A stretch of DNA of 64,000 nucleotides from Planctomycetota bacterium. Lineage in GTDB: Bacteria; Planctomycetota; GCA-002687715; CAIWVZ01. The notes under the pieces were generated by a model. The model saw only the letters and a list, made by a program, of their open reading frames with translations, did no database searches and was not told the origin of the DNA. This document shows positions 3,037 through 53,360 of this stretch, one piece after another. How positions within the stretch are numbered: the first letter of the stretch is position 1; each line of letters starts with the position of its first letter. Location of the stretch: the NCBI GenBank assembly GCA_044222185.1, contig JBGANV010000006.1, positions 224,001 to 288,000 on the forward strand, given 5' to 3'. The position numbers were made by a program, and so were the translations under genes.

Positions 3037-4752
3037 ATGAGAACCGCCCGTCCTGCCCTCGTACTTGCCCGCGTCGTGATGGCGTTCCTGCCAATCACCG
3101 CGGGGTCGCTCTTCGGTCAGTCCGCGTGTCAGCAAACGCTGCCCGCAGGATGGGACGGGCTCGACGGTCCGGCGACCGTCGGCAATCCGTTCAACGTGAA
3201 CCTGTCGCAGAAGTGGCAGTACGTCTACGACTCGAGCAACTTCGTGATCCAGGCGCCGATCTCGATCACGCAGCTCTACGTTCGCGCCGCGCTCCCCGGT
3301 TTCACCGGACCTGGCGGGACGCTCAACAGCCTCGTCGTGACGATGGCGTCGTGTCCGTTCAACTTCGCGGCCGCGAGCGCAACGATGAGTGCGAACCTCG
3401 CGAGCGACGCGACCGTCATGCGGACGGGCGCATGGACGTCCGGGGCGATCGCCGCGGGCGGCAACACGGGAAGCTGGATCTCGCTGAACCTGACGACTCC
3501 GTTCAACTACAACCCGGCGCTCGGGCTCGATCTCGTCGTGCAGATCGAGCGCTGTGGCGGCGGGACCATCGGAACGAATACCGATCACGTGACCGGTGCG
3601 ACGAACGCGTCGCGTGTCGGATCCGGCAATAGTTGCGCGCCGATCAGCGGGGGCTCACCGACCGGCACCGTTTCGATCTTCCGGATCGACTACGTGGCGG
3701 GGACGCCGCGCTGGCAGGTGAACCAGCCCGCCGCGCATTTCGACATCGACGGCCAGACCAACGACGCATGCGCGGGACCGATATCGGCAACCCGCTGTGC
3801 GGGCGCGTCGATGACGGCGAACTTGACGAGCACGGCCGCGGCGTCGCCGTGGGATCTGGCGATCGCTCCCGGTTCAGGCGTTGCCGGCGGCGCGGGCGGA
3901 CTCGTTCTTCCCGGCGGCCAGGTCGTGAACGTGAACCTGGCTTCACCAGGCCTCACGTTCCTCCTCGGAGCCTCGTTCCAGACTCCGTTCATTCCGCTCA
4001 GTCTGCCGTTCACGTTCCCCGTCGCACCATTCGATCTCACCGCGCAGATGGTGCTGCTGACCCCGTCCGTCGCCGGGGGCATCGCTCTCAGCGCGGCGAA
4101 CGAAGTCCACATCGTGAGCGGAGGCGTGGTCCCCGGGCCGACCGCCGACGACAGCTTCGTGACGGTCGTACCGGCGCAGCCGCCCCTTCATTGCCCCGCC
4201 ACGCTGCCGTTCTTCGGTGTCAACTACACGCAGGTCCACGTGATCTCGAACGGCCGGATCATGTTCAACGTCGTCGATACGGACTACAGCCCGACGGTCG
4301 CCGAGGCCATCGCGGGGTCGCCGTTCGTCGGTGTGTGGTGCGACCTCGCGCCGCAGCAGGGCGGCTTGATCTCGATCACGATGCCGACCGCGAATCTGTT
4401 CCGTGTCACGTACGCGGGCGTGCCCTTCTACAACTCGCCGACGAACAATCCGACCTGGTACATCGAGCTCGACTCGTCCACGGGCGCGGTGACACTCAAC
4501 GGGTTCGGGGCATTCACCCAGTTCGTGCCGGCCGCGGGTACGGTCACGGATCAGTGGATCGGAATGAGCGTTGGCGGTGGCGTCGCGACGGACGCGGGAC
4601 AGACCACGTACACCCTCGGGCTCAGCCCGGGACCGTCGAATGCCACGGACATGATCTACCGCCTGGGGCTGGGAGGCACGCTCACGCCGGGCGTCATGTC
4701 GCTGATCTTCACGCCGAACTCCTTCGGCAATTACGACTGGACCGGGCTCTGA
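3037..4752 (+). CDS. Secreted three-domain protein, paralog 1 of 3 (C-terminal nidogen/NIDO-like region)
   Basis: GAGGAGG RBS; signal peptide ending SLFG|Q; collinear similarity to 49707 and 51600; 'LPFFGVNYTQVHVISNGRIMF...WCDLAP' is NIDO-like. Confidence 0.8.
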   Translation: MRTARPALVLARVVMAFLPITAGSLFGQSACQQTLPAGWDGLDGPATVGNPFNVNLSQKWQYVYDSSNFVIQAPISITQLYVRAALPGFTGPGGTLNSLVVTMASCPFNFAAASATMSANLASDATVMRTGAWTSGAIAAGGNTGSWISLNLTTPFNYNPALGLDLVVQIERCGGGTIGTNTDHVTGATNASRVGSGNSCAPISGGSPTGTVSIFRIDYVAGTPRWQVNQPAAHFDIDGQTNDACAGPISATRCAGASMTANLTSTAAASPWDLAIAPGSGVAGGAGGLVLPGGQVVNVNLASPGLTFLLGASFQTPFIPLSLPFTFPVAPFDLTAQMVLLTPSVAGGIALSAANEVHIVSGGVVPGPTADDSFVTVVPAQPPLHCPATLPFFGVNYTQVHVISNGRIMFNVVDTDYSPTVAEAIAGSPFVGVWCDLAPQQGGLISITMPTANLFRVTYAGVPFYNSPTNNPTWYIELDSSTGAVTLNGFGAFTQFVPAAGTVTDQWIGMSVGGGVATDAGQTTYTLGLSPGPSNATDMIYRLGLGGTLTPGVMSLIFTPNSFGNYDWTGL

Positions 4753-4766
4753 CCCGAGCCAGACCC

Positions 4767-5435
4767 GTGACCGATCTGCGTGCCGCCGCGCGCCGTCTCG
4801 CCAAGGAGTTCGGCGCGGCGCCACCGCCCTTCCCCAAGGGTCCGTTCGAGCTGATCCTCTGGGAGAACGTGGCCTACCTCGCCGACGACGAACGACGCCG
4901 CGAGGCATTCGATCTCCTGAAGGCGGAAGTTGGGACGAAGCCCGCCGAGATCCTGAAGGCGCCCGAACGCACGCTCCTCGCAGTGGCCGCACGCGGCATC
5001 GTTCCCGAGACGTTCGCGAAGAAGCTCCGCGATGCCGCACGGATCGCCGTCGACACGTTCGGCGGTGATCTGCGCCACGTCGTCCGAGGACCGCAGGCCG
5101 ACGCGAAACGCGCCCTCCGGAAGTTTCCCGGCATCGGGGAACCCGCCGCGGAGAAGATCCTGCTCTTCCTGAAGCTGCACGCTTTCCTCGCGCCGGACTC
5201 CAACGCTCTGCGCGTGATGGTCCGTCTGGGCGTCAGTCCGGAGAAGAAGTCGTATGGGCCGATGTACGCCGCGGCGCGCGCCGTGGCTGCCGAGCAGCTC
5301 GGCGACGACCTCGACCTCGTCTACGCCGCTCACGTCCACCTGCGACGCCTCGGGCAGGAGACGTGCAAGCGCACGAAGCCCGCGTGTCCACGATGTCCGC
5401 TGAGATCCATGTGTGCGTTTGCCGCTGGCACGTGA
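4767..5435 (+). CDS. HhH-GPD DNA glycosylase (endonuclease III superfamily) with 4Fe-4S motif
   Basis: 'PFELILWE', HhH 'LRKFPGIGEPAAEKIL', Asp in 'PDSNALR', C-terminal CKRTKPACPRCPLRSMC (CX6CX2CX5C). Confidence 0.85.
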   Translation: MTDLRAAARRLAKEFGAAPPPFPKGPFELILWENVAYLADDERRREAFDLLKAEVGTKPAEILKAPERTLLAVAARGIVPETFAKKLRDAARIAVDTFGGDLRHVVRGPQADAKRALRKFPGIGEPAAEKILLFLKLHAFLAPDSNALRVMVRLGVSPEKKSYGPMYAAARAVAAEQLGDDLDLVYAAHVHLRRLGQETCKRTKPACPRCPLRSMCAFAAGT

Positions 5436-6057: not shown

Positions 6058-7755
6058 TCAGTGTCCCAGCACGAGGTGGAGGCCGTTCGTGAGTGCGAAC
6101 CCGTTCACTCCGGCGAGGAGCGCCTGCAAGTCGACCGGGAAGCAATCGAGTGCGGGGTCATTGGGGATCGTCGACGTGAACGACCAGGCGCCGGCGCCGT
6201 CCGTCGTCAACGTGAGGAAGATCAACATGCCACCTTGCTGCAGGTAGAGGGTGCAGGCACCGAACAGGGGCTGAGGCGTTCCGCCCGGGGGGCTCACCAA
6301 CAAGATGCCGGACGCATTCGGGTCGGCGCCCGTGATCGTCAGCGTGCCCGGCTGTCCGAGCAGCGGCAGCCCGCCGTTGAGCGTCGGCGGCACCGTGCCA
6401 CACGAAGTTCCGAACTGCTGCGACGCGGCGTCGTGATGGGAGATGGCGAGGGTGAACGGCCCACCGATCGACGTCGACCACGATCCCACGAAGAACGTGT
6501 ATGTCGTCAGAGGGTTCGCCGTGAACGTGACCTTCGACTGCACGCTGCACGTGTCGTCGTTGCAGGCCACTTCGGTGAATGCGCCGCACGTCCCCGAGTA
6601 GACGGTGACGAGCGTATCGAAGCCCGCAGCGCCGCCTTCAGTGGCGCACAGGCTCAACGTGACCGTGCGCGGGCACGTCGCCGGGTTCGTGTAGGTGTAC
6701 CAGATGTCGCGCCCGTGAGCGGCGCACGTCGACGTTGGGGCGTCGGTCGTGGCCGTCGTGTTGTTTCCAACCACGAGGCCATCAGTGACGGCGATGGGGG
6801 ATCCGCACGAGTCGTTGGGCGCGAGAACTCCGATCGTGATTGCACCGTTGGAGCTGCGTGCCTGCGCATCCGACACCGTGAACGGAACCGACAGCACGCT
6901 GGGCGGGGTTGCCGGCGGAATCGCCGCGATCAGCGTGAAGACGCCCGCCGGGCCCTCCGTCATCGGTTGGAGCGGTCCGCCACCCAGTGAAGTGGTATCG
7001 GCCACGACGGTGATCCCCGTGCTCGCCGGGTTCGCGCCCGGGCAGGCATTGACGGTGAGCGTGACGGGCGCGCCAGCGAGCGCCGCTGACGGCGACGCGG
7101 TGCCTGTGCCAACCGGCGGCGTCGATCCGGTCGACGTGTAGTGGACGCGGATGTTGGCGAGGCGGCCACCGGCCGTCGTGCTACCGAGATTGCCACCGAA
7201 CGGGCCGAGCGCCGTCGCGCTCCACGCCTTGCCGAATCCGATGATCACGCGGAGGTTCGCATCCTGGGTCAGCGTCTGGCCGACGTTCTGCGTTCCTGCC
7301 GTGCCGGTCGTGTAGTTCAGCGTCGTCGAGCTCGATCCGATGTTGACTGCGAAACCCTGCGTCGCGCCCGGTGCGATCGTCCTGCTGATGGCCGGATAGG
7401 GCGTGAGGATGTTGGACGCGCCGGTCGTCGACGTCCCGAGTGACGTGACGGTTCCCGAAGACGCAAGCGTCCATGCGGCTGCGGTCGACGCCACCGTGGT
7501 GTGCGTGCCGCCGGCCGTCACGTACCACGTCTGCACCGGCCACGTGCCCGGGTCGAGGTTCACGTCGAACCCGGTGATGGTCATCGTGTCCGTGGCCGAC
7601 AGGTTGACGAGATCGAACATCACGCCATTCTGGCCATTGCCACCCACGTTCGTGGTGAACAGCGTGAGTTCGCTGCTGCATTGCGCCAGCCCGATGGTCG
7701 ACGCGACGATGACGGCTGCGAGAACTCGTGCGAGGAAACACTTCTCGAATTGCAT
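6058..7755 (-). CDS. Secreted multidomain beta-rich protein with Cys-rich 'PNDxC...CNDDxC' module and C-terminal shared domain
   Basis: GGAGG RBS before ATG 7755; signal peptide GLA|Q; 'APNDSCGSPIAV', 'RDIWYTYT', 'FDTLVTVYSGTCG...ACNDDTC'; tail 'IPNDPALDCFPVDLQALL...FALTNGLHLVLGH'. Confidence 0.8.
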   Translation of the reverse strand: MQFEKCFLARVLAAVIVASTIGLAQCSSELTLFTTNVGGNGQNGVMFDLVNLSATDTMTITGFDVNLDPGTWPVQTWYVTAGGTHTTVASTAAAWTLASSGTVTSLGTSTTGASNILTPYPAISRTIAPGATQGFAVNIGSSSTTLNYTTGTAGTQNVGQTLTQDANLRVIIGFGKAWSATALGPFGGNLGSTTAGGRLANIRVHYTSTGSTPPVGTGTASPSAALAGAPVTLTVNACPGANPASTGITVVADTTSLGGGPLQPMTEGPAGVFTLIAAIPPATPPSVLSVPFTVSDAQARSSNGAITIGVLAPNDSCGSPIAVTDGLVVGNNTTATTDAPTSTCAAHGRDIWYTYTNPATCPRTVTLSLCATEGGAAGFDTLVTVYSGTCGAFTEVACNDDTCSVQSKVTFTANPLTTYTFFVGSWSTSIGGPFTLAISHHDAASQQFGTSCGTVPPTLNGGLPLLGQPGTLTITGADPNASGILLVSPPGGTPQPLFGACTLYLQQGGMLIFLTLTTDGAGAWSFTSTIPNDPALDCFPVDLQALLAGVNGFALTNGLHLVLGH

Positions 7756-10181: not shown

Positions 10182-10766
10182 ATGCTGGTCGGCGAACCGA
10201 AGTCATTTGCGATCGAGTCCGAAGTGACGGAGTTCGTGCCACACCGGAGCCAGATCGGGCTTGGCTGCTTCAACGTTCATGTCGCGGGGCACCGATTCGG
10301 AGTGATGGCGCCGGATGCGTCGATGCTCGGGTGTTCGTACGCGGAGGTCGGCCGGCGCTTGCAGCGGCGGGGAACCCATCGCGCCGCCGTCGCGTTCACG
10401 TGTTCGGCGGACTCGATCGCGACGCTGTGGATCGCGCATCGGTATCCGCCGGCACTCGTTGGCCCCGAGCCGACGCCGACCGAGGTCGACGCCGTCGCGG
10501 AGATGGTCGCGAATCACACGGATTGGGCACCCGACGGCGACGAAGCGTTCGACGACGGCAGTCACGTGCTTCAGTTCGATCTCGAGGAGAGCGTGCGACT
10601 GGTCGGGTTCCGCACCGACGGGACCTGGGCGCCGAGGGATGGCCTCGTCGCGGACGCCTGGATTCCGGCGGGCGACTACTACGAAGTCCTGCGCGAGTGG
10701 CGCGAGCGGTTCGAGCTCGCCTGGCTCCGCAACCTGCGCGGGAACCCGGACAGCGCCTCCCCGTGA
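10182..10766 (+). CDS. Immunity protein, Imm42-like
   Basis: 'MLVGEPKSFAIES...LGCFNVHVAGHRFGV..PDASMLGCS', 'DEAFDDGSHVLQFD...VRLVGF' match the Imm42 pattern as I recall it. Confidence 0.7.
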   Translation: MLVGEPKSFAIESEVTEFVPHRSQIGLGCFNVHVAGHRFGVMAPDASMLGCSYAEVGRRLQRRGTHRAAVAFTCSADSIATLWIAHRYPPALVGPEPTPTEVDAVAEMVANHTDWAPDGDEAFDDGSHVLQFDLEESVRLVGFRTDGTWAPRDGLVADAWIPAGDYYEVLREWRERFELAWLRNLRGNPDSASP

Positions 10767-11018: not shown

Positions 11019-14000
11019 TCACTCCAACAGCAGCTCCCCGAACTGTGACGAGTCCTTCGTGCCCGTCAGGCCCGGTGTCCACTCGGTCGCGCCACGGTAG
11101 CCATCCCCGTCGTTGTCGTTCGCGATGAAGCCGAAGCCCAGGCGTGTGCCAGGCGTCAGCGTCACGCGGGGGAGGACCGTCGAGGGGACGACGAATTCGT
11201 AGACGATGTGGCCGTCGTCTCGCTTGACGATCCCCACGGGGGCGTCGACCACGCGCCCCGTCTTGCCGCCGTCACCGCCATACCAGCACCAGACGATGGG
11301 ACCTTCGATCGTCAGCGCGGCGCCGAACTCCAGATCGCGGGCGTCGTACCCCAGCGACGTCGACGGAGCGACGGAGACGGCGATCTGCACCGAGTCTCCC
11401 TTCCAGCACGAGGTGCCGATCTCGGGTTGACAGAACACGTCGTCCGTCACGTCGATGGCGACCGCGAGTCCCGTGGCGCCATAGCGGACGGCTCCGCGCA
11501 TGGACCCGAGCTTGCCCTGGACCGACGCGAACTCCTCCGGCGCCCAATCGGAGAGGTCCCCGTCGGCTTTCACCTTGTCGATGGTTGGTCTTGCGTGCAG
11601 CTCCGGCGCGACCGTGTACGCGACCGTCGTGGTCGCGCCCTCGCCGACTCGCGCACGCAGGTCTCCTCGCGTCGGTCCACCGGTGCGCGTGAGTTCGAAG
11701 TCGGTCGTCTGTACGGCGTGTCGCTCGTGGCGCACGGACGTCTGCCCGCCGCGCGTGACGGCGATCCCCCCCGGCGCCTCGATCGTCACGTCCGCGGCCG
11801 GTCCTTCACCGAGCGAGAGCGCGCTGACCGTGACCTTCGTCGGCTGACCGTCACGCAGCCGGATCCGATCGCCGCTGAATCGGAGGACCCGCTCTTCACG
11901 ACGCGTGACGATCCCGATGGTCTCGCCGTACGTGATCGTGCCGCCGGCGCAGAACCGCAGAAGCGCGAAGCTTGGCGGCAGGCGGTCGCCGACGTGAGCG
12001 TCCACGGTGATCGAGCCGCGCGGCGGGATCGTCAGCGTCCGGCGCCATGCGGGGACGTGGGGCCACGACACGAACGGCATGAGCCACGTCGCCACGCCCG
12101 TGATCGGCCCGTCGGTGAGGTTCTCGATCCGGGCGCGGATCTCGGTCCCCGCGACGGCGAGGGGCGCCGCGTTCTCGATCGCGACCACGGGCGCGTCGGC
12201 ACTCACGCCCGCGCAGACGGAGAACGAGCCCGTCACGGTGCGGCCCGATGGAATCGTCGCGATCACCGTGACGAGGGAGCGACCCGGCGGCGCGTCAGGC
12301 TTGCGGCGGAACTTCAGCGTGATGGTCTCGCGGCCCCCGGCGGCGACGCTCAGTGAGGATTTCGACAGCGTGACCTGAAGGTTCTGGGGTGCCTCCACCG
12401 CGAGAATCAGCTCCGCGCTTGCCTCCCGTCGGTCGTTCAGGACGTCGACGCTGACTGCGTGCTCGTCCGCGTCGTTCGCGTCGATCGCCAGGATGCCGTT
12501 CTTTGGCGACGGGACGACGCTGATCATCCCGTTGCCCGTGACGCCCTCCGCGAGATTCTCGCGCCAGTAAGCGGATGGACTGCGGTCGCCTTCCGTCGGG
12601 TCGAGCGATGGTGCATCGGCGTCGGCCTCGCGCGCGTCCAACTCGGCGAGCACGGTGACGACGGCGTTCGATCCGATGGGAACCTCCACGGCGTCGCCTT
12701 TCACCGTCAGCGATCGCAGTGGGGTCTCGAGCAGGTCCGTGATCCACACCTGCTTGAGCGGATGACGGAACGCGATCTTCGCCGTGTCGTCGCGCAGGCG
12801 GCTGTTCCAAAGCCGCAAGACGACCCGCTTCGGACCCGGTGCGGACGTGCGATGCTCCCATTTCGCTTCTGGATTGCCCGCAGCCTTCAACGCCTGAAGC
12901 AGGACGCCGCGGGGCTCGACGCGCACGAACTCGGCGCGCCGACCCAGGGGGCCTTCGTGCTTCGCCTCCAGTCGAGACAGCGCCGGTTGATTGAACGCCT
13001 GCGCATGCCACGGGAAGTCGGCCTCGCGCCAGTCGCCGAAGCCAAACTGGAGAGCGTAGTGGAACACGTGCGTGCCGTGCATCGTCTCGAAGGGTGCGCC
13101 GTCGGGAAGGCGTCGCGCGGGCGGATCGATCCAGAGTCCGGACGGCCAGCCCGTCGTGCTGCGAAGGAGGTTCAGCCCGAGCCCATGCACCTGGGAAACG
13201 TGTCCGGAGATGGCGCCGTTCGAGATCACGACCATGGACGTGGGCCCGACCGGATCCTGCATCCGGTCCCGCACGAGCCCGACGTCTTCGAGCTTCTCCA
13301 TGCGGATGACCTTCAAGTCGCCGGGAACGGCACTCTCCGGAAGCTCGTCGGCCGGTCCGACGAGGATGCGAAGCCCGGGATGGTCCGAATCGAGTTTCAG
13401 ATCTCCATAGCGGCGCGCCGTCGACCGCGTGATCGTGGACGTCACACCCGCACGCCCGAGTCGCCGCGCGATCGCGTTGGCGAGTTCCCATCGCTCGGCC
13501 GCCGCGGTGGACGCCACGACGATCTCGGCGATCGCCGGGGTCGCGGGCGAGCTCGCGAGCCCGAAGAATTGGCTGAACGTCTCGTCGAGAGTCCATGGGT
13601 CCTGTGAAACGTCGACGTCGCGGCTGAACGGACGCCCCACGATGGCCGCCGCCGTTTCGTAGATGGGTGCCGCTCCATCGGCGCGCAGGTTCGCGGCGAA
13701 CTCGGCCCGAAGGAGCTTGTCCTTGCCCTTCCAGTCGATGATCTCGGTCGTGAACTCGATGCGGGGGGCGTCGGGCGCGAGGCGGATGTGCTCGCGCTTG
13801 GTGAAGTCGGGATAGGTCGCGACGACGACGATCTCGTCGGGGTGCAACGGGTCAGGCGGTTGCACCACGGCCGGCACGTCGTTCGGCTCGTAGCGGCGGC
13901 CCGTCGTCGCGATGTGCCACGGGCCTTCGCCCTGGCCGGGGAGGATCGGGTACTCATCCAGTTCGACGATCCGGTTGCACGGACCGGACCAGATCGACTT

Positions 14001-32759: not shown

Positions 32760-32782
32760 CGTCGCTCACACGGAGTTCCTTC

Positions 32783-35047: not shown

Positions 35048-35048
35048 C

Positions 35049-36083: not shown

Positions 36084-36139
36084 GTCGACTCCGGAACACG
36101 CCGATCTTGGTGCGTCCGGGTCCGAGATGAACGAAGCCG

Positions 36140-38692: not shown

Positions 38693-38734
38693 ACGCGTCG
38701 GGTGCGATCTTCACGGGCGGGTAACATCCCGCCC

Positions 38735-40210: not shown

Positions 40211-40258
40211 GGCCGATGCGGCGCGTCCGCACGGCCGCCGCGCGGACGGCCCGCCCGG

Positions 40259-41047
40259 TCACGGCAGGATGCAGGTACTGATGGGGTTCGTCACCTTCGG
40301 GAAGCCGAGGGCGTCGATGATCCCCACCTGGAAGTGGAGGGGGAGCCCAACGATCTGCGGGATGTTGGGGATGAAGCACGACAGGTTGGTCGCCACGCCC
40401 AGGACGTCCAGGTTGCCCTGGAAGTTCGCGAACAGGAACGGATCCGGCGTCGGGAAGGAGAGCGTGAAGAGGATGTCCGGGTCGAGAGCGACGAACACGG
40501 GCGGGAACGAGATCCCGACCTCGGTCGTGATGGAGCCCGCTGCGAAGTACGGCATGTAGGCATCAGCGGCCGAGCTGACGTCCATCGTCATGGTCTGGCC
40601 CACGTGTGGCTGCGCGGTGACCGTCAGGAGCGGCGACGTGCTCGCGGCGGCGCGCACGGTGAACGGCGCCCATGACGTGCTGTACGACGCGGCCCCGACC
40701 GCCTTGTACTGGACCTTCAGGTAGTAGAGGCCCGATGACGCGTTCGTCGGGACGGCCTGAGTGTCGGTCGCGGACGCTCCGGCGGCCACCGTGATGGCGT
40801 TGAAGCCGCAGAAGCCCAGAGGCCACGGCGCGACCGGCCCGGCGGGGGTTCCCGAGTGGACCGTCGTGAAGAGACAGCTCGATGGGAATTGGAACCCGGC
40901 GCCGGAGATGTCCGTCACGGTGAGGGTGACGGTCTGGCCGGGCGCCACCGGGTCCGGCGAGATCGTCGAGCAGATGGTCTGAGCGCCGGCGACGGCGCAG
41001 ATGGCGGCGAACACGAGAGCGTGGGTGAACGAGCGATGCAGTTTCAT
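40259..41047 (-). CDS. Secreted two-domain hypothetical protein with C-terminal shared domain
   Basis: Signal peptide AGA|Q; Ig-like N-domain 'PDPVAPGQTVTLTV'; tail 'FQGNLDVLG...IPNIPQIVGLPLHFQVGIIDALGFPKVTNPISTCILP'. Confidence 0.75.
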   Translation of the reverse strand: MKLHRSFTHALVFAAICAVAGAQTICSTISPDPVAPGQTVTLTVTDISGAGFQFPSSCLFTTVHSGTPAGPVAPWPLGFCGFNAITVAAGASATDTQAVPTNASSGLYYLKVQYKAVGAASYSTSWAPFTVRAAASTSPLLTVTAQPHVGQTMTMDVSSAADAYMPYFAAGSITTEVGISFPPVFVALDPDILFTLSFPTPDPFLFANFQGNLDVLGVATNLSCFIPNIPQIVGLPLHFQVGIIDALGFPKVTNPISTCILP

Positions 41048-41191
41048 GGGATCCTCCGGGATGGCGCGAGCCCGGAGTCTACACGGAACACCCGGCGGCC
41101 GAGCGAGGGTCTCGGATCACGCGACCGGAGGGTTCGCCCAGGTGGTTTTGCGGGTTCCCGATACACTGCGCCGCCCTCGCGAGGCCTCTCC

Positions 41192-42361: not shown

Positions 42362-42541
42362 CGGGCGCGGGTTCTGCGATGTCGGCCGGCGGCGGCCTCG
42401 CCAGCCGGCCACGCCAAACTTCAGCGGCGACGCCGCTTCGTCCGATGTACCTCCTGACACCGGTTTCCGATGTCACCTGAAGAGGGACCCCGTGCGGCGT
42501 GCCACCGAGCCCGTCGGCGGGCCGGTGTCCGAAGGAAACCC

Positions 42542-45457
42542 ATGTCGCACAGAACGCACACGCTCCGCCTCGGCGTGCTGCTCGCGGTCCTGACGTCCCT
42601 ACCGCTCTCCGCCCAAGCGCCCATGGCGGGCACCTACACGGTCGATTCGGCCCAGCCTGCCGGCACGACGAATTTCCCGACGCTGGCCTCCTGCGTCGCG
42701 GCGCTCACGTCGCGCGGCGTCAGCGCTCCCGTGACGGTCGACCTCATCCAGAACACGCCGGCCGACTTCACGACGTCGACACAATGGCGATTGCTCCAGA
42801 GCGCTGGCATCAACGCCTTCGGAGGCGCAGCGATCCTCGTGCTCGACCAGTTCCCAGGGGTTTCGGCCACGAATCGCGTGACGTTCCGCACGGGATCCCT
42901 CAGCCCGATCAGGCCCGTCGTGTTCGATTGCAGCGTGCACTCGGTCGGTGTCGGCGTGTTCTTCCAGGGCGCCGATTACGTGACGATCGAGGACATCGAG
43001 ATCAAGGGCGCGGCATACGACGGGATCATGCTCTATGGCGAAACGGGCATGTTCACGACGAACCTGGCGAACGCCGCCATGGACCACTGCTGGATTCGCC
43101 GCTGCCGCATCCACGATTGCGCCGGGACGGCGATCACCCTCTATGGCAATCCCTATCAGCCCGGGTTCACGCGCATAGAGAACAACTTCTTCTGGAACAA
43201 CATGAAGAACTGCGCGGGGCCGCTGACGAACTTCGGACGGTTCGGGCACATCTCCGGCAGGCGCAATCACGACGTGCAGATCGTCCACAATTCGTTCTAT
43301 CAGGACGTCACGATGCAGACGCTTCCGGGCGGTCTGACGCCGTGCATGATCGGTTCCAACAACTCGAGCGGTACCGCCTATGCCCTCTGCTCGGGTAACG
43401 CGTTCCAGATCGCAGGGTCCGGGACGACGGTCCCCGGGGGCTTCTATCGCTGGTACACGCAGGGTGCGATCACGAACGTCCCCTCGAGCGGCACCGGATA
43501 CGCCACGGGAACGCTTCTCGGCCACGGCCGCAACTTCTACTTCAACACGTCCGGCGGAACGACTTTCGCGATCGTCGGGTCGACGACGGTGGCGGATCTG
43601 CTCGGCTATCAAACGCTGACGACGCTCGACGCGAACTCGCAGGCGGTCGATCCCCAGTTCGCGGTGCCGTCGACGGGCAACCTGGACCTCGCGACCCAGG
43701 CGTCCCCCGCGGTCGATCAGGGAGTCACCGGACTCGGGATCACGGTCGACATCCATGGATCGCCGCGAATCGGCACCGCGCCCGACGTGGGCGCGATGGA
43801 AGCGCGGCCGCCGGTCCTCACCGCCAGTTTCGGAGCGAACGTCACGTCCGGGCAGTGCCCGCTGACGGTGAACTTCGCCGATCAATCGACGACCGGCGGA
43901 GGCCCCGCGGTCACCTCGTGGCAGTGGGCCTTCGACGGCGATGGGACCACACAGGCTACGACGTCGAATCCCACGTGGACGTTCACGCATACGGGGACCT
44001 ATTCAGTCAGTCTCGTGGTGTCGGACGGGACACAGACGGCCTCGCGGATCCGTACCAATTACATCGTCGTGTCGGACTCCACCGGACCGGTGTTCTCGGG
44101 ATGCCCCACGGGGCCGGTGCTTGCGCCAGCGAACCAGCCGAACTGCGCGGCCACCGTCACGTGGCCGCCGATCACGGCGAGCGATGGATGCGGGACCGTC
44201 ACGCTGACGTCGACGCATCAACCCGGCTCGCTGTTCCCACTCGGCACCACGCCCGTCACCTACACGGCTGTCGACAACCTCGCGCACGTCTCGACGTGCA
44301 CGTTCGACGTGACCGTGACGTCCGTGCAGCCGGCGATCGCAGTGCAGCCGCTCAATCGGCTTTTGTGCGTCGGTTCCACCGGCACGATCTCCGTGACGGC
44401 GGCCGCCGCAGGCCCTCCGCCCACCTACCAGTGGAAACGCGGGGGAGTGGCAATCCCGGGTGCGACGCAGTCCGTACTCACGATTTCCAACGCGACGACC
44501 GCCGACAGTGGTTCCTATACCGTGGTGCTCGACAACGGTTGCGGGACCATCACGAGCAACGCGGCGACCGTCTCCGTCCTCACCGGCCCGGTGATCACGC
44601 AAGGCCCGGTCAATGACATGCCGTGTGCAGGGACGCAGGTCATCCTCTCCGTCCAGGCGACCAGTCCTTCGCCGTTGTCGTATCAGTGGCGTCGCAACGG
44701 GGTCGTGATCGCGGGGTTGGACTCGCCGATACTCACGATCCCGAACGCGTTGGTCACGGACTCCGGGATCTTCGACGTCACGGTCAGCGACGTCTGCTCC
44801 TCGACCACGAGTCAGCCCGCGCTCATCCAGATCACTGCACCTCCGGCGATCGCAGCGCAGCCGCTTCCTGTGACGAGCTACCCGGGAGTGCCCGCGAGCA
44901 TCAGCGTCTCGGCCGCGAGTACCGTTCCAGTGACCTACCAGTGGCGGCAGAATGGGACGCCCATTCCGGGTGCAACCCAACCGGCGTACGTGATCGGGCG
45001 GTTGGTTCCGGCGGACGCCGGCATGTACGACGTGGTCGTCACGAACTCGTGTGGTTCGGTCACGAGCCAGGCCGTCCCGCTTTCGGTGACTCCGTTCACG
45101 CTCACGATCGATCAGCAACCCGGCCCTCACTCGGTCCACATCCATCACACGGGCGGGATCCCGTACATCGAGTACCTGTGCGCCGTCTCCTTCCACGCGG
45201 CGAATCAGACCCAGCCCGGGCAGGGACCCTGGTTCGGTCTCTTCATCGACCCAGGCGAACTCGTGACGGAGATCTTCGCCGCCGGACCTCCGTTCGTGGG
45301 ATTCCTCGACGCGAACGGAGACGCCGACTTCGCGACGCCTCCATTCACGATCACCCCCAATCTGTGGGGCACCCCGGTCTGGTGCGTCACGATCATGGGC
45401 GATTCGTTCTCGGCAGTCGTGTACGGCGCATCGAACATCGCCACGATGGCGCTGTGA
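42542..45457 (+). CDS. Large secreted protein: right-handed beta-helix + PKD + HYR + three Ig-like domains + C-terminal shared domain
   Basis: Signal peptide LSA|Q; 'GTYTV...NFPTL', 'DIHGSPR...PDVGAME'; PKD 'VNFADQS...SWQWAFDGDG...NPTWTF..TGTYSVSL'; HYR 'PGSLFPLGTTPVTYTAVD'; three 'YQW.R/Q.G..I.G...D.G.Y/F.V.V' repeats. Confidence 0.85.
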   Translation: MSHRTHTLRLGVLLAVLTSLPLSAQAPMAGTYTVDSAQPAGTTNFPTLASCVAALTSRGVSAPVTVDLIQNTPADFTTSTQWRLLQSAGINAFGGAAILVLDQFPGVSATNRVTFRTGSLSPIRPVVFDCSVHSVGVGVFFQGADYVTIEDIEIKGAAYDGIMLYGETGMFTTNLANAAMDHCWIRRCRIHDCAGTAITLYGNPYQPGFTRIENNFFWNNMKNCAGPLTNFGRFGHISGRRNHDVQIVHNSFYQDVTMQTLPGGLTPCMIGSNNSSGTAYALCSGNAFQIAGSGTTVPGGFYRWYTQGAITNVPSSGTGYATGTLLGHGRNFYFNTSGGTTFAIVGSTTVADLLGYQTLTTLDANSQAVDPQFAVPSTGNLDLATQASPAVDQGVTGLGITVDIHGSPRIGTAPDVGAMEARPPVLTASFGANVTSGQCPLTVNFADQSTTGGGPAVTSWQWAFDGDGTTQATTSNPTWTFTHTGTYSVSLVVSDGTQTASRIRTNYIVVSDSTGPVFSGCPTGPVLAPANQPNCAATVTWPPITASDGCGTVTLTSTHQPGSLFPLGTTPVTYTAVDNLAHVSTCTFDVTVTSVQPAIAVQPLNRLLCVGSTGTISVTAAAAGPPPTYQWKRGGVAIPGATQSVLTISNATTADSGSYTVVLDNGCGTITSNAATVSVLTGPVITQGPVNDMPCAGTQVILSVQATSPSPLSYQWRRNGVVIAGLDSPILTIPNALVTDSGIFDVTVSDVCSSTTSQPALIQITAPPAIAAQPLPVTSYPGVPASISVSAASTVPVTYQWRQNGTPIPGATQPAYVIGRLVPADAGMYDVVVTNSCGSVTSQAVPLSVTPFTLTIDQQPGPHSVHIHHTGGIPYIEYLCAVSFHAANQTQPGQGPWFGLFIDPGELVTEIFAAGPPFVGFLDANGDADFATPPFTITPNLWGTPVWCVTIMGDSFSAVVYGASNIATMAL

Positions 45458-45568
45458 CCGGCGTGCAGGACGCGGGTATGCCGCGTCTCGCGGAGATCAC
45501 CGGCTTCGGGTACGCTTTGCGGCCCCGTGAGCGGCGGTCGCCGGCTCCGCGGGATGCGAGGTCACGCG

Positions 45569-46624
45569 ATGCCACGTCCCGTCACGTTGTTCACCGGCCA
45601 GTGGGCGGATCTGCCGATCGAGCAGCTCTGCAAGAAGGCGAAGGCGTTCGGCTTCGACGGACTGGAGCTGGCCTGCTGGGGTGACCATTTCGACGTCCCG
45701 CGGGCGCTCGCCGACCCGGCGTGGATCAAGCGGCAGTGGGACGTCCTGCAGTCGCACGGGCTCGACTGCTTCGCGATCTCCAATCACCTCGTCGGCCAGG
45801 CCGTCTGCGATCGGATCGACGAGCGGCACAAGGCGATCTTGCCGGATCGGATCTGGGGCGACGGCTCGCCCGAGGCCGTGCGCCAGCGTGCGGCCGCCGA
45901 AATGAAGGACACGGCTCGCGCGGCCCGCAAGTTCTTCGACGCGGCTCCGCCCCGAGTGAAGGACGTCCTGCGGCGCACCGGTCGCACCGTCGTCGTCGGG
46001 TTCACCGGCAGCAGCATCTGGCCTCTGCTCTATTCGTTCCCACCGAATCGCCCAGGGCAGATCGACGCCGGGTTCGAGGATTTCGGCCGGCGCTGGGGAG
46101 ACATCCTCGCCACGTTCGATTCCGTCGGCGTCAGCTTCGCGCTCGAGGTCCATCCCACCGAGATCGCGTTCGACATCGCGTCGACACGCCGCGCGCTCGA
46201 TGCCATCGGCAACCACCCGCGGTTCGGCTTCAACTTCGACCCGTCGCACTTCGGTTACCAGGGCGTCGATTACCTGGGCTTCCTCCGTGAATTCGGGACG
46301 CGCGTCTTCAACGTTCACGTGAAGGACGTGTGGTGGTCGGATCGACCCATGGAGATCGGGGTGTTCGGCGGGCACCAGGAGTTCGGAGTCGACGGCCGGT
46401 TCTGGGACTTCCGCTCTCCGGGCCGCGGACGCATCGATTTCGAGGGCATCATTCGCCTGCTCAACCACGCGCGTTACGAAGGGCCACTGTCCGTCGAATG
46501 GGAAGACCCCATGATGGATCGCGAATTCGGCGCGACGGACTCCGTGCAGTTCGTGCGCGCCTTGGATTTCCCCAGATCCGGACGGGCATTCGACGCCGCG
46601 TTCTCGGAAGGGAAGAGCACATAG
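45569..46624 (+). CDS. Sugar phosphate isomerase/epimerase (AP_endonuc_2), '[10 protein letters not shown]' clade
   Basis: '[12 protein letters not shown]', '[13 protein letters not shown]', '[12 protein letters not shown]', 'FNFDPSH', 'VHVKD', 'LSVEWED'. Confidence 0.9.
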
Positions 46625-46704
46625 GTCCGCGGGTTCGCTGGAACGACTCGCCGGCCGCGACGCGGGACCAAGGACGCGCCACGCAACGAAAGATGGAATC
46701 GCGC

Positions 46705-48006
46705 ATGCAACGATCACCGACCGTTCGCCTCTCGATCATGATGTTCCTGCAGTACGCCGTGTGGGGGGCGTGGCTTCCGACGGCCGGCCTGTATCTCACG
46801 TCGCCCAAGGCGTCGGGGGGACTTGGATTCGAGCAGGGCGACCTGGGGATGATCCTGGGGATTGCAGGGGCGATCGGGGCCATCGCCGCGCCTTTCATCG
46901 CAGGACAGTTCGCCGACCGGTACTTCGCGACCGAGCGGTTCATGGCCGTCGTCCTGGCTCTCGGTGGCGTCGTGAACTGGGTCCTCGCGTCCCAGACCTC
47001 GGTGTCGTCGTGGCTGTGGCTGTCGGTCGTCTACAGCGTCCTCTACATGCCGACGCTGGCGCTGTCGAACTCGATGGCCTTCGCCAATCTGACGGACTCG
47101 GAGCGGGACTTCCCCAAGGTCCGCATCTGGGGAACGATCGGCTGGATCGCAGCGAGCTGGGCATTCCCCATGATCTGGATGCAGACGGGGCTCCACGGCC
47201 AGGCCCTGCCGCCGTTCATCAAAGGCGTCGATCGCCCGGACGCGATCGCGCAGATCGCCAACTCGCTTCGCTTCTCGGGCGGCCTGGCCCTGTTCTATGC
47301 CGTGTTCTGTCTGGCGCTCCCACACACTCCGCCCAAGCGCGACGCCGTCGAGCCGTTGGCGTTCAAGCGAGCCTTGGGGTTGCTCGCGCGCCCGTCGTTC
47401 GCGGTCCTCGTCGCGACGAGTCTCCTCATCAGCGTCATCCACAACATCTACTTCATGCAGACGAGCTCGTTCCTCCCGACGCTCGGCCTGGACAAGGGCA
47501 CCGTCGGACCGGCGATGACGATCGGGCAGTTCGCGGAGATCGGCGTCATGGCGCTGCTGGGGATGATGCTCAAGCGGCTCGGAGCGAAGGGGGTCATCGC
47601 GATCGGGATCGGTGCCTACGTCCTGCGCTACGCGATCTGGTCGCAGACCTCGTTGCCGATGGAGATCCTCGTCGCCAGCCAAGCGCTGCACGGCGTGTGC
47701 TACGCGTGCTTCTTCGCTGCCGCGTACATCTACGTCGACCGCATCGCGCCGGTGGACGTGCGACACTCCGCGCAAACCGTGTTCGGCATCCTCATTCTGG
47801 GTGCGGGCCCCGTCGTCGGTGGCTGGTTGAATGGCAAGCTCGCGGGCCAGTATCCGGCTGCGGGTGTCGAGGGTGCAACGCAGGCCATCGATTACTCACC
47901 GTTCTGGCTCTTTCTCGCGGGGATTGCTGCCTTCGCGTTCCTGTTCTTCCTCCTCCTTTTTCGCGACGAATCGCAGCCCGCTTCCGACACGTCCGCGCCT
48001 GCGTGA
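46705..48006 (+). CDS. MFS transporter, nucleoside:H+ symporter (NupG/YegT) family
   Basis: 'RLSIMMFLQYAVWGAW', 'GQFADRYF..ER', 'YMPTLALSNS', 'FPKVRIWGTIGWI', 'LHGVCY'; alternative ATG at 46693. Confidence 0.88.
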   Translation: MQRSPTVRLSIMMFLQYAVWGAWLPTAGLYLTSPKASGGLGFEQGDLGMILGIAGAIGAIAAPFIAGQFADRYFATERFMAVVLALGGVVNWVLASQTSVSSWLWLSVVYSVLYMPTLALSNSMAFANLTDSERDFPKVRIWGTIGWIAASWAFPMIWMQTGLHGQALPPFIKGVDRPDAIAQIANSLRFSGGLALFYAVFCLALPHTPPKRDAVEPLAFKRALGLLARPSFAVLVATSLLISVIHNIYFMQTSSFLPTLGLDKGTVGPAMTIGQFAEIGVMALLGMMLKRLGAKGVIAIGIGAYVLRYAIWSQTSLPMEILVASQALHGVCYACFFAAAYIYVDRIAPVDVRHSAQTVFGILILGAGPVVGGWLNGKLAGQYPAAGVEGATQAIDYSPFWLFLAGIAAFAFLFFLLLFRDESQPASDTSAPA

Positions 48007-49706: not shown

Positions 49707-51434
49707 ATGAAGCGTCACACATCATTTGCCGTTGTCGCGATCGTCGTCGGATTCCTACTCCCGACATCCGCCCTCGCCCAGGTGCAGTGCTCACAGACGC
49801 TGCCGAACGGATACATGAACGTGGACGGACCCACGTTCCTCGGGAACCCGTTCAACTCGACCTCGGCCCAGAAGTGGCAATGGGTGTACGACTCCTCGCA
49901 CTTCCTCGCGCAGGGGCCAATCACCATCACGGATATCGCGGTGCGCCCCACGTCACCCACGGTGACAGCAGCCGCGACGACGTTCTCGAGCTTCAAGGTC
50001 CGGCTGGGATCGAGCCCGAACAACTACACGCTCGCCTCGCAGAGCGCCACGTTCGCGAACAACCTCACGACCAACCAGGTGCTCGCCTACAACGGCGTTT
50101 GGAGTACGGGAGTGATCACGGCATCGGCGGGAACGACGGCCAACTGGATCCAGTTCGGCCTCACGACGCCGTTCACGTTCAACCCCGGCTTGGGACAGGA
50201 CCTCGTCGTCCAGGTCGAGAAGTGCTCGAGCGCTTCGGCGCAATTCCAGCTCGATGCCATCAGCGGGGCCTCGGGGACGGTCGGCGGCAACTCCTACGGA
50301 AACACCTCGGCATGCACCGCGGCGTCGCGCAGCACGTCCTACAACGAAACGTGCCCGATCATCAAAGTCGACTACTCGCAGAACCTGACGCCGAATTGGC
50401 AGCTCAATTCGCCCCAGTGCGACATGAACATCAACGGCGTGCAGAATTCCGCGTGCTCGGGTGGTCCCATTGCCGTGAACATCTGCCCCGGCCAGTCCGG
50501 CACGGTGAACCTCTCGACGTCGTTGACGTTCCCGCCGTTCGACCTGCTGGTGACGTTGGGGCAGCCGGTTCCGTTGGGCGGCGGTGGATTCACGACGACG
50601 CACGGCCAGATCGTCAACATGAACCTCGCGGATCCGACGCTGTTCCTGCTGAACGGTGGGGCGTTCCAGCCGCTCCCAAGCTTCTCGTTGCCGGTGACCC
50701 TGGCGGCCGTCGGCGGGTTCTCCGCGCAGATGATCGTTCTCGATGCGACCCATCCGGACTCCTTCCGTCTGTCCGCGGCGAATCGCCTCGCCGCAGTGGC
50801 CCCGTTCGTCGCGGGCCCCGTTGGTGACGACACCTACGTCTCCGTCGTGACGGGCGGACCGGCCGTCTGCGGGCCAGCGTCGTTCACCTACTACGGCGTC
50901 GCGTACACCACCGTCAACGTCCAGTCGAACGGACGGCTGATGTGGGGTGGCGCCGGGATCACGAACGACATCACGCCCAGCAACACGTTGGCGCTCACCC
51001 AGAATCCGGCTGCGGGCGCGTGGGTCGACCTGTCGCCGCCGGCTGGCGGTTTGATCACGATCAACTCGCCCGGTCCCGGGCTGTTGCGTGCGAGCTGGTC
51101 GAGTGTGCCGTACTTCAATCAGCAGGCACTCGTGACGAACTGGTACATCGAGCTCGATGCGACGACCGGTGCGATCACGATCTCGGGACTCGCGAACTTC
51201 CCCGTGCACCCGACGGCCGCGAACATGTGGCTCGGCGTGAGCGCAGGCCAGTTCGGGCCGGCGACCGATGGTGGCGCGATCACCTATGCGCTCGGCGGCC
51301 CCACGGCGGGCCCACCGGGGCTGCTCGACATGGTCTATGCCTACGGACCGACGGGCACACTCACCCCGGGTATCAACACGCTCATCTTCACGCCCAACGG
51401 GTTGGGCAACTACAACTACACGGCGCTGCCGTGA
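49707..51434 (+). CDS. Secreted three-domain protein, paralog 2 of 3
   Basis: Signal peptide ALA|Q; 'TLPNGY..VDGP..LGNPFN...QKWQWVYDSSHF'; 'YYGVAY..VNVQSNGRLM'; ends 'FTPNGLGNYNYTALP'. Confidence 0.8.
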   Translation: MKRHTSFAVVAIVVGFLLPTSALAQVQCSQTLPNGYMNVDGPTFLGNPFNSTSAQKWQWVYDSSHFLAQGPITITDIAVRPTSPTVTAAATTFSSFKVRLGSSPNNYTLASQSATFANNLTTNQVLAYNGVWSTGVITASAGTTANWIQFGLTTPFTFNPGLGQDLVVQVEKCSSASAQFQLDAISGASGTVGGNSYGNTSACTAASRSTSYNETCPIIKVDYSQNLTPNWQLNSPQCDMNINGVQNSACSGGPIAVNICPGQSGTVNLSTSLTFPPFDLLVTLGQPVPLGGGGFTTTHGQIVNMNLADPTLFLLNGGAFQPLPSFSLPVTLAAVGGFSAQMIVLDATHPDSFRLSAANRLAAVAPFVAGPVGDDTYVSVVTGGPAVCGPASFTYYGVAYTTVNVQSNGRLMWGGAGITNDITPSNTLALTQNPAAGAWVDLSPPAGGLITINSPGPGLLRASWSSVPYFNQQALVTNWYIELDATTGAITISGLANFPVHPTAANMWLGVSAGQFGPATDGGAITYALGGPTAGPPGLLDMVYAYGPTGTLTPGINTLIFTPNGLGNYNYTALP

Positions 51435-51441: not shown

Positions 51442-51462
51442 CGGCCGCGAGGTTCGCGGCCG
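51442..51462 (+). terminator. Hairpin just after the paralog 2 stop
   Basis: CGGCCGCGA-ggt-TCGCGGCCG, 9 bp stem, weak U-tract. Confidence 0.45.
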
Positions 51463-51599
51463 GTGGTTCCCATAACGGAGTGCTTTTGCTTTTGGTGTTT
51501 CCTGCGCAGTGGCGTGATGGCCGGCAACATGGATCCCCATCCAGTTGGCGTGTCGCAACGGCTCGCAGGTTTGTGAGATGTGTGGAGGTCAACAGGATC

Positions 51600-53360
51600 A
51601 TGAAGGTTCAGAATTTGGCGCTCGTTGCCGTCGCGACCCTCGCGGTTGCCGGCGGAGTCTTCGGACAGTGCGTCGAGCAGAGTCTGCCGGCGGGGTATGA
51701 GACGTACACCGCGAACTACATCACGGGGACGCCGTTCGGCGGCACGGCCGATCAGCACGTGCAGTTCATCTGCGATTCGTCAGAGTTCGCGGCCAGCGGC
51801 CCGGTCGTGATCAAGGAGGTCTACGTCCGCGTGTTCGATGCGAACACGGGCGGTTTCTATCCGAGCGTCGAAGTGAGCCTCGCTTCGGCCGTGAACGACT
51901 ACGACAACACGGCGGCGAACATGCTCAGTTTCGCGGGCAACATGGGGCCCGACCTGACGCTGGTCCGCCCGGCGGCAGCGTTCAACCCTGGTCCGCAGCC
52001 CGGCCAGCGTTTCGTTCCGCTCGGGATCCAGAACACCTTCATCTACAACCCGACGCTCGGCAACGACTTCCTCGTCGACATCAAGCGTTGCGGCGCCGGC
52101 ACTCCGTGGACGCACCCGACGTTCGCCGGCAACGTCCTCGACGCGAAGGGCCCGACGACTCCGATCCGCATGCGCCGCTACAGCCTCACGGCGACGACGG
52201 CCTGCACGACGGGCTTGGCTCCGACGACGAACCAGAGCGACTTCTGCGCCGTCCTCCTCGTCTCCTACTACCCGGTCGGCAGCCCGCAGGCCGAGTGGCA
52301 GGTCAACACGGCGAACGCCAGCTTCGACCTCGATGGCAACGGCTTCAACCGTCCCTGCGGCGGCGCCATCGACGTGACCCGGTACTCGAACCAGCCGATC
52401 AATGCGAACCTCAACAGCGCGCTCCTCGGCAACCCGTGGGATCTGGCGTTCGGGTTCGGCTTCGGCGTCCCGGCCAGCGCCGGCGGATTCACGCTCGCGA
52501 ACGGCGATGTGGTGAACGTCGACCTGCTCTCGGCCCCGAGCTTCCTGCTCGGCCTCACATTTGCCGTCCCGTTCTCGGCGACGACCTTGCCTTTCGCCCT
52601 CCCGGCGCCGATCACGCTCGACCTCTATGCGCAGATGGTGATGCTGAACCCGGCAACGGCCGGCGGATTCAATCTCAGCGCCCTCACGCAGCTCCACCTG
52701 CAACCGTCGCAGGCAGTGTTCCCGGGACCGGCCGGCGATGACGAAGCGCTGAGCGTTCCGCTCTGGGCCGTCGGTGGCGCTCCGCTGTCGATCCCGTTCT
52801 ATGGCGTGAACTACAACACGTTCAACTTGATCTCGAACGGCCGCATCATGTTCGGCACGCCGAACACGAACTGCTGCCCGGGCACGACGCAGGCGACTGC
52901 GGCGACGGCCGCGCTCGCGGATTCGGCGTTCGCTGCCGTCGCGTGGTGTGACATGAACCCGTCGATCGGCGGGAACATCACGGTGACGAGCCCGGGTGCG
53001 GGCCAGGTTGCCGCGCACTGGTCGAACGTTCCGTACTTCGGGAACCCGACGACGTCGAACACGTTCGACCTCATCGTGGATGCCGTGGCGAACACCGTGC
53101 AGTTCAACTACACGGCGTTGCAGGCGTTCCCGTCGGCCCCGAGCACCTCGCCAGAGCAGTTCATCGGCGTGTCGGCCGGTGTGGGCGTGGCGACGGACCA
53201 GGGCGCGACCACGTTCGCCGTCGGCGGACCGATCACCGGCCCGGCCAACAACGGCATGGTCTATCAGTGGGCGGTGAACGGCCCGACGATCACCGGCATC
53301 CAGTCGATCATCTTCACGTGGAACACCGTGTCGAATCAGTACGACTGGGTTGCGTTCTGA
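51600..53360 (+). CDS. Secreted three-domain protein, paralog 3 of 3
   Basis: Signal peptide VFG|Q; 'SLPAGY...GTPF...VQFICDSSEF'; 'EWQVN...FDLDG'; 'IPFYGVNYNTFNLISNGRIMFG'; 'AWCDMNP'; ends 'NQYDWVAF'. Confidence 0.8.
   Translation: MKVQNLALVAVATLAVAGGVFGQCVEQSLPAGYETYTANYITGTPFGGTADQHVQFICDSSEFAASGPVVIKEVYVRVFDANTGGFYPSVEVSLASAVNDYDNTAANMLSFAGNMGPDLTLVRPAAAFNPGPQPGQRFVPLGIQNTFIYNPTLGNDFLVDIKRCGAGTPWTHPTFAGNVLDAKGPTTPIRMRRYSLTATTACTTGLAPTTNQSDFCAVLLVSYYPVGSPQAEWQVNTANASFDLDGNGFNRPCGGAIDVTRYSNQPINANLNSALLGNPWDLAFGFGFGVPASAGGFTLANGDVVNVDLLSAPSFLLGLTFAVPFSATTLPFALPAPITLDLYAQMVMLNPATAGGFNLSALTQLHLQPSQAVFPGPAGDDEALSVPLWAVGGAPLSIPFYGVNYNTFNLISNGRIMFGTPNTNCCPGTTQATAATAALADSAFAAVAWCDMNPSIGGNITVTSPGAGQVAAHWSNVPYFGNPTTSNTFDLIVDAVANTVQFNYTALQAFPSAPSTSPEQFIGVSAGVGVATDQGATTFAVGGPITGPANNGMVYQWAVNGPTITGIQSIIFTWNTVSNQYDWVAF

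Follow-up and report, generated by a model that had tools for sequence, protein, structure and literature searches.

In a 64,000-nucleotide stretch of Planctomycetota DNA (contig JBGANV010000006.1, positions 224,001 to 288,000 of the forward strand; this whole stretch is referred to below as the window), the proteins predicted to be exported by the Sec pathway and cleaved by signal peptidase I (SPI) carry glutamine (Gln) as the first residue after the predicted cut, position +1. This bias is strong, is not a product of paralogy, extends to planctomycete homologues of the window proteins, and is most marked near the branch to which the window belongs. The corresponding preference in Bacteroidetes is called the Q-rule. 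We consider it probable that the lineage observes a rule like that of Bacteroidota, in which precursors would be cleaved at these Gln sites, the new N-terminus would be cyclised to pyroglutamate by a glutaminyl cyclase, and the exported proteins would be protected from aminopeptidases.

The guanine-plus-cytosine (GC) content of the window is 68%. Named homologues of its proteins belong, by their NCBI names, to Planctomycetota or Planctomycetes metagenome-assembled genomes, including Poly30 at 50% identity, and Planctomycetota is the most frequent phylum in the Atlas clusters of the family of protein 49707 (proteins are designated here by the position of their start codon). A first-pass annotation, made from the sequence letters, had taken the host for a probable planctomycete, and both the names and the clusters agree with it; the homologues place the host in Planctomycetota and not in Bacteroidota. 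In a FastTree phylogeny of ThuA alone, which has a long outgroup branch, the window protein falls outside an 88-row clade holding Poly30, presumably a member of OM190. At least eight full-length ThuA orthologue loci were among the matches listed in a scan of GTDB loci, none of them adjoining the window protein.

Glutamine at the predicted cleavage sites of the window

The first-pass annotation had placed Gln directly after the signal-peptide site in every one of 12 secreted proteins, with cuts chosen by eye. Blind scoring bears this out: among 45 called genes, the predictor recovered the same 12 SPI substrates and one lipoprotein. Each of the 12 motifs is in frame, the coordinates given for the proteins are those of ATG start codons, and Gln is residue 21-28. 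Pfam recognises a GH38 protein, a DUF1570 protein, a ThuA plus DUF1080 protein, a tandem DUF1080 protein and an immunoglobulin (Ig)/PKD/beta-helix protein, the other seven being without a family. By BLASTP the 12 proteins form 10 families and not 12, because 3037, 49707 and 51600 are paralogues.

In eight of the proteins the Gln site is the blind best site as such. These are a secreted protein of no known family at 6058-7755 (minus strand; GLA|Q, Gln codon 7681-7683), the GH38 alpha-mannosidase-like protein with a CBM9-like tail at 11019-15824 (minus; LSA|Q, 15759-15761), the DUF1570 protein at 15940-17013 (plus; APA|Q, 16003-16005), a second secreted protein of no known family at 22244-23401 (plus; AVA|Q, 22313-22315), the ThuA plus DUF1080 (3-keto-disaccharide hydrolase) protein at 31372-32721 (minus; SFA|Q, 32659-32661), a small secreted protein of 132 residues at 38294-38692 (plus; TVA|Q, 38363-38365), a secreted protein of 262 residues at 40259-41047 (minus; AGA|Q, 40979-40981), whose single homologue found (P0245) has ALPS|Q, and the secreted surface protein 49707 at 49707-51434 (plus; ALA|Q, 49779-49781). 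The beta-helix, PKD, HYR and Ig-repeat surface protein at 42542-45457 (plus; LSA|Q, 42614-42616) has a higher-scoring AQA|P site, but this would put Pro at +1. In the remaining three the Gln site ranks below another. Protein 3037 (3037-4752, plus; SLFG|Q, 3118-3120), a secreted beta-rich surface protein paralogous to 49707 and 51600 and without a Pfam or NCBIfam family match, has AGS|L as its best site (6.2 vs 5.8 for the Gln site); 51600 (51600-53360, plus; VFG|Q, 51666-51668), the other paralogue of 49707, has AVA|G (7.9 vs 7.3); and the tandem DUF1080 protein at 32783-34123 (plus; TAG|Q, 32861-32863), the least certain site of all, has LCA|A.

The scorer behind these values was home-made and is not SignalP: it considers only residues upstream of the cut, ignores +1, and uses our own weights derived from the A-X-A rule, with a threshold of 6, a site being termed plausible if it scores no more than 2 units below the best. 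A first run missed 32721 and called 15824 a lipoprotein; the start window was then widened, the lipobox rule tightened and sites before Pro excluded, all after the window had been seen. Gln stands at the blind best site in 8/12 proteins, or in 9/12 once sites before Pro are barred; counting plausible sites, of which there are 1.9 per protein, it reaches 12/12, against 0/12 for each of E, D, N, K, R and H. As Asn and Glu do not substitute for Gln in the window, the pattern would fit a Gln-specific chemistry. The first D, E, K, R, Q, N or H past the hydrophobic core is also Gln in all 12 proteins, with Gln making up 15% of these seven residue types and 3.5% of mature residues. In 3,000 shuffles, which permuted the 40 residues starting at the first-polar position after the core, the maxima out of 12 were 4 for the best site, 6 for any plausible site and 9 for the first polar residue. 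The first-polar measure was dropped as stand-alone evidence, E. coli reaching 6/12 Gln by it and yet 0/12 for Gln at the +1 of the best site.

The predicted lipoprotein, a DUF4440/SnoaL protein at 17038-17511 (minus), has an LCGC lipobox with Cys at +1 and is exempt from the rule, as lipoproteins are in Bacteroidota. Three open reading frames (ORFs) passed over in the first-pass annotation have an N-terminal hydrophobic stretch with no Gln and are possible counter-examples: 23535-23981 (plus), in which the stretch ends GAWFLAR; a CarboxypepD_reg protein at 27406-30459 (minus), ending VWLATR; and 2373-2906 (plus, start uncertain), ending PFLAR with no Gln at the boundary. The N-termini of 23535 and 30459 are probably uncleaved membrane anchors, judging from their sequence, and that of ~2373, which like them ends in W/F-L-A-(T)-R, has the same look. 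All three score above the threshold (9.1, 6.9 and 8.5 for 23535, 30459 and ~2373, respectively), and since the scorer accepts these Gln-less ORFs, the worst case becomes 12/15 genes or 10/13 families. The 95% lower bound is 0.69 for 10/10 families and 0.46 for 10/13 (interval 0.46-0.95). Most SPI substrates thus counted carry Gln at +1, and the same holds for the homologues.

Homologues and other lineages

The preference is found throughout three large homologue sets (DUF1570, the 49707 family and ThuA), so that the bias proposed for the lineage does reach beyond the window. Among 119 DUF1570 homologues, of which 16 rows could not be classified or gave weak or lipoprotein calls, 22 of the nearest 28 SPI proteins have Gln at the best site and 27 at a plausible one, the figures for the farther 75 being 40 and 63. 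A fixed pattern, [AGS]Q past the hydrophobic core, occurs in 108/113 rows (six were dropped), the Gln lying 5-16 residues ahead of the first conserved motif and being followed by 17 different +2 residues. The 49707 family was sampled as 150 representatives at 50% identity, two of them the window's own rows; the other 148 comprise 119 SPI calls, 22 rows without a signal (mostly fragments) and 7 weak or lipoprotein calls. Of those 119 SPI proteins, 90 have Gln at the best site and 114 at a plausible one. The 49707 homologues carry 21 unrelated N-terminal families, with Gln in the majority in 21/21 and at the best site in 16 (the two own rows included). Together with the 10 families of the window, this upholds the earlier contention that paralogy is not the cause.

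ThuA behaves less uniformly. Of 119 rows, 103 were SPI calls, with Gln at the best site in 39 and at a plausible site in 53; [AGS]Q is present in 32/35 rows outside the Poly30 clade vs 31/80 inside it (four rows dropped). The five rows nearest the window protein are all A|Q by eye, and the first-polar Gln lies 3-45 residues ahead of the domain. Inside the Poly30 clade, 57/80 rows still have a linker Gln, in many cases preceded by L, V or P. Many homologues of that clade (P0013, P0027, P0046, P0053, P0059 and others) have very short, charge-poor signal peptides that end L-Q, V-Q or P-Q with no A-X-A before the Gln, which may reflect an unusual style of signal peptide in the clade. These sequences suggest a near-strict rule around the window's branch and a looser one in the clade holding Poly30. 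Because linker length and the +2 residue vary, Gln would appear to be tied to the cut rather than to a position in the structure. Furthermore, A, G or S is uncommon at +2 (23/108 in DUF1570, 22/114 in the 49707 family), so the Gln is mostly not the middle (-2) residue of an A-Q-A site.

As controls, GTDB loci and named records from other lineages were run through the same code; the control sets hold false positives, so all control values are underestimates. Counting proteins with Gln at the best site, those with Gln at a plausible site and total SPI calls, in that order, the scorer gave 0, 1 and 12 for E. coli; 3, 3 and 13 for Azospirillum (68% GC); 1, 2 and 10 for Bradyrhizobium; 3, 3 and 22 for Actinomycetota; 2, 4 and 18 for Rokubacteria/Methylomirabilota; 2, 2 and 9 for Verrucomicrobiota; 3, 4 and 6 for other or unnamed records; 5, 8 and 13 for Bacteroidota-labelled loci; 5, 7 and 14 for Gemmatirosa; 10, 17 and 32 for Acidobacteriota; 6, 7 and 18 for Poribacteria; 10, 14 and 33 for Planctomycetia; 5, 5 and 13 for Phycisphaerae; 4, 6 and 16 for unplaced Planctomycetota; and 9, 12 and 28 for the eight full-length ThuA orthologue loci. 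As Azospirillum equals the window in GC, high GC alone does not yield the pattern. Proteobacteria and Actinomycetota pooled have plausible-site Gln in 9/57, from which 10/13 families (possible anchors counted) differ by Fisher's test (p 4e-5); the same count shows no clear difference from Planctomycetia (p 0.05) or Acidobacteriota (p 0.19). Given the Gln enrichment in the small samples of Acidobacteriota, Gemmatirosa, Poribacteria and Planctomycetia, this lineage is not alone in showing the trait. In the clear Sec/SPI proteins of Gemmatirosa (L085, L087) and of Vicinamibacteria (Acidobacteriota loci L017-L078), Gln mostly follows the signal peptide. One record titled Bacteroidales, L051, encodes proteins that closely resemble those of the Gemmataceae loci L068 and L074 and is probably misbinned or mislabelled; it is counted among the 13 Bacteroidota-labelled rows, and Prevotella alone gives 5/8 at the best site.

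The Q-rule and competing explanations

The Q-rule of Bacteroidetes is the subject of Bochtler et al. 2018 (PMC5837995) and Szczesniak et al. 2023 (PMC10653852). The 2018 survey (PMC5837995), which also covered Chlorobi, Spirochaetes, Chlamydiae and Cyanobacteria, gives a mean Q-value of 71% for Bacteroidetes within a continuum from 2% to 77%, the Spirochaete mean lying near 0.20, and names as high-Q outliers Ignavibacterium album (77%), Chloroherpeton thalassium (55%) and four cyanobacteria (40-67%). Cyclisation and stabilisation have been demonstrated in Porphyromonas gingivalis (PMC5837995; PMC10653852), the one species for which an essential cyclase and less stable Gln-to-Asn variants are described (PMC10653852). 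The rule has been called exclusive to Bacteroidetes and explained by heavy periplasmic proteolysis (PMC10653852). The text and three supplements of the 2018 survey contain no mention of Planctomycetes, nor does the survey mention Acidobacteriota or Gemmatimonadota (PMC5837995), and we found no report of a Q-rule in Planctomycetota in a literature search that mostly left subscription journals uncovered. The earlier idea of a Q-rule outside Bacteroidota appears new as regards the planctomycete case; it is not new that high Q-values occur outside the classical Bacteroidetes, as the outliers had already been published (PMC5837995), and other phyla are enriched here too.

The window resembles the Bacteroidetes case in that Gln directly follows the predicted SPI site across unrelated families, lipoproteins are exempt, and the proteins have no single destination. 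A Q-rule of the Bacteroidetes type is marked by a genome-wide Q-value above ~48% (SignalP/LipoP) and by a cyclase that is usually a lipoprotein with an intact active site. The bias seen here may exceed the 71% Bacteroidetes mean, though the predictors differ. What differs is the host, a planctomycete, and the kind of evidence: cyclase, pyroglutamate and essentiality have been shown in Bacteroidetes, whereas the case made here is one of sequence pattern, and full membership of the rule would need a cyclase and pyroglutamate peptides. Like the outliers of 2018, the lineage has high values outside the phylum as then defined; those were single species, mostly of the Fibrobacteres-Chlorobi-Bacteroidetes (FCB) group, whereas here a whole lineage with hundreds of homologues is concerned. 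We take this lineage to belong to the Planctomycetes-Verrucomicrobia-Chlamydiae (PVC) group.

By analogy with Bacteroidetes, pyroglutamate capping by a glutaminyl cyclase would be the likeliest mechanism. Precursors would be exported by Sec and cut by SPI after A, G or S at -1, as their sequences predict; selection, as the sequence pattern in the window and the three homologue sets shows, would retain Gln as the first mature residue of unrelated enzymes and surface proteins, lipoproteins retaining Cys; a periplasm-facing cyclase of type I or type II would convert Gln to pyroglutamate; and the blocked N-terminus would shield exported proteins from amino- and dipeptidyl-peptidases. Pyroglutamate would act as a stability cap rather than as a sorting signal.

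Several points weigh against a Q-rule in this lineage. Cyclases of type I or II are the enzymes the mechanism would need, and neither was found in the window (44 proteins scanned with Pfam) or in the fetched loci, which are a small part of any genome; about 0.5 Mb of these loci are Planctomycetota-labelled and spread over many genomes. PF05096 we take to be the type I (beta-propeller) enzyme. When the window and all fetched loci were searched with type I motifs and, by tblastn, with a pair of type II cyclases from Bacteroidia, nothing came up other than the loci of the probes themselves and M28 peptidases that are unrelated. One such probe, obtained through E. coli YfbL and plasmid-collection records, matches PDB 6qro (E 1e-98) and has no planctomycete relative among the plasmid records. 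Bacterial type II cyclases are the M28-like PgQC, TfQC and PiQC (PMC7948796). As glutaminyl cyclases are said to be present in most bacteria (PMC10653852), a cyclase alone would be weak support. Of the source genome, 64 kb were covered, and the pyroglutamate step is proposed by analogy. The flanking genes of other Planctomycetota, an unbiased sample, have only some 40% Gln (ThuA loci 12/28, Planctomycetia 14/33, Phycisphaerae 5/13), and two loci outside the Poly30 clade, L008 and L012, have 2/5 under a stricter filter. The predictor is crude and lets in false positives, giving 8/13 for the Bacteroidota-labelled loci. Homologue rows within one family share ancestry, so their counts are non-independent trials.

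The bias could be real with no dedicated cyclase behind it, if SPI preferred Gln at P1', if Gln slowly cyclised by itself, or if free Gln were a poor aminopeptidase substrate. We hold this to be improbable; SPI is permissive at +1 except for Pro, which counts against a preference of the peptidase. The missing cyclase in window and loci would agree with such an account, and a lineage-specific peptidase preference would also produce the 32/35 vs 31/80 contrast between ThuA clades. Spontaneous, phosphate-assisted cyclisation has been described (PMC5837995), but mass spectrometry of five Bacteroidetes found the +1 Gln cyclised and never free (PMC5837995), and the wide occurrence of cyclases in bacteria likewise speaks against it (PMC10653852). 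Quite improbable, in our judgement, is the absence of any lineage rule, with Gln moderately enriched (30-50%) across diderms and the window and chosen families at the high end. The published continuum down to 2%, with Spirochaetes near 0.20, would accommodate it (PMC5837995), as would the plausible-site values of Planctomycetia (14/33), Acidobacteriota (17/32), Gemmatirosa (7/14) and Poribacteria (7/18) and the unclear separation of 10/13 families from the first two of these groups. Against it, 10/10 families has a probability of 0.001 at a true rate of 0.5, Gln prevails in 21/21 unrelated N-terminal families of the 49707 set, and a single family, ThuA, moves from 32/35 to 31/80 between clades. 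An artefact of calling by eye, with cuts chosen beside Gln and real cuts elsewhere, e.g., with Gln at -2, would account for the three of 12 proteins in which the blind best site is not the Gln site, and the E. coli values (first polar residue Gln in 6/12, +1 Gln in 0/12) show that the first-polar measure alone can mislead; the blind scorer nevertheless takes the Gln site in 8-9/12 against a shuffle maximum of 4, and the +2 residue is mostly other than A, G or S, making an artefact very unlikely.

The first-pass annotation had also likened these proteins to type IX secretion system (T9SS) cargo, and N-terminal Gln or pyroglutamate could in principle mark proteins for sorting to the cell surface along a T9SS-like route. 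The window proteins do share with such cargo a Sec signal peptide, +1 Gln and, in some of them, Ig-like and beta-helix repeats; several of the 12 are beta-rich and adhesin-like, and some C-terminal ends are alike by eye. They differ from it in having no match to T9SS C-terminal domain (CTD) models, none of the 12 at NCBIfam E 0.1 or Pfam E 0.001 and none of eight at E 1; both libraries presumably contain such models. The Pfam scan of the 64-kb window found no T9SS machinery genes among those encoded there. The module shared by 3037, 49707 and 51600 matches generic Ig folds only and is mostly internal (118/124 matches), and likely periplasmic enzymes also bear Gln. In Bacteroidetes, moreover, the modification does not steer sorting (PMC5837995; PMC10653852). 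The tie to T9SS cargo is not supported by these results, and a sorting mark seems to us highly unlikely.

If the lineage does follow a Q-rule of the Bacteroidota kind, this would be a known rule in a new phylum, which extends a known pathway and brings no new mechanism or chemistry. It would contradict the exclusivity claimed for Bacteroidetes (PMC10653852). With a second, unrelated phylum, and with strict and loose clades within one family, comparative genomics can put the proteolysis explanation to the test. These uncultured planctomycetes would be predicted to have blocked N-termini and a cyclase, which is relevant to proteomics, cleavage-site prediction and enzyme expression; bacteroidal cyclases being pursued as selective drug targets, the breadth of bacterial dependence is also of practical interest. 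More tentatively, and with somewhat less than an even chance in our estimation, the Q-rule could be a trait of several distant diderm lineages, shared or separately evolved, with the window branch near-strict (at least 90% of SPI substrates) and tighter than the Bacteroidetes mean, the Poly30 clade relaxed, and Vicinamibacteria, Gemmatimonadota and Poribacteria enriched. Cyclase-dependent capping would in that case be a general pathway of envelope quality control, with a strength that could be read from genomes and compared with cyclase type and periplasmic peptidase load.

The Ig-like module and other features of the window

The unnamed module common to the three paralogues was delimited in 49707 as residues 226-367 (50382-50807, plus strand) and modelled as an all-beta, Ig-like sandwich with a predicted local distance difference test score (pLDDT) of 95.5. 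A fold search with this internal module found generic Ig folds only (best Z 7.2, root-mean-square deviation 4.2, 112 aligned; none at Z >=8), with no T9SS CTD among the matches listed. It occurs in 650 representatives at E 0.001; the N-terminal domains in front of it are of ~21 kinds, and a NIDO-like region usually follows it. Five further proteins (6058-7755, 22244-23401, 38294-38692, 40259-41047 and 42542-45457) have similar C-terminal ends by eye, P..L.G.....Q......G...SN...L, possibly a lineage-specific terminal module. Such a common module was not confirmed: a hidden Markov model (HMM) of the 49707 module scored 22244 alone among the five (E 0.002), and one L010 protein besides (E 0.019).

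Among the remaining genes, those at 17604-21158 (minus) encode the ATPase and both permeases of a sugar ATP-binding cassette (ABC) transporter; according to Pfam, no gene for a substrate-binding protein adjoins them. A lone Imm42 immunity-protein match (E 4e-8) lies at 10182-10766 (plus), with no toxin gene recognised alongside. A dispersed sugar-catabolism cluster at 31372-48006, with ThuA, DUF1080, two TIM-barrel isomerases, two GFO oxidoreductases and a nucleoside:H+ symporter, is broken up by unrelated secreted proteins. At 24114-27116 (minus), a protein of 1,000 residues links an extracytoplasmic function (ECF) sigma factor, by way of a hydrophobic segment, with five CarboxypepD_reg domains, and its gene adjoins that of the probably anchored CarboxypepD_reg protein at 27406-30459. 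Finally, three repeat units of 186 nucleotides, dropped as a genome-wide probe since they occur at this one place, lie at 1287-1800 in the intergenic space after a GNAT gene; they carry short palindromes whose orientation alternates and are similar to repetitive extragenic palindromes and bacterial interspersed mosaic elements (REP/BIME).

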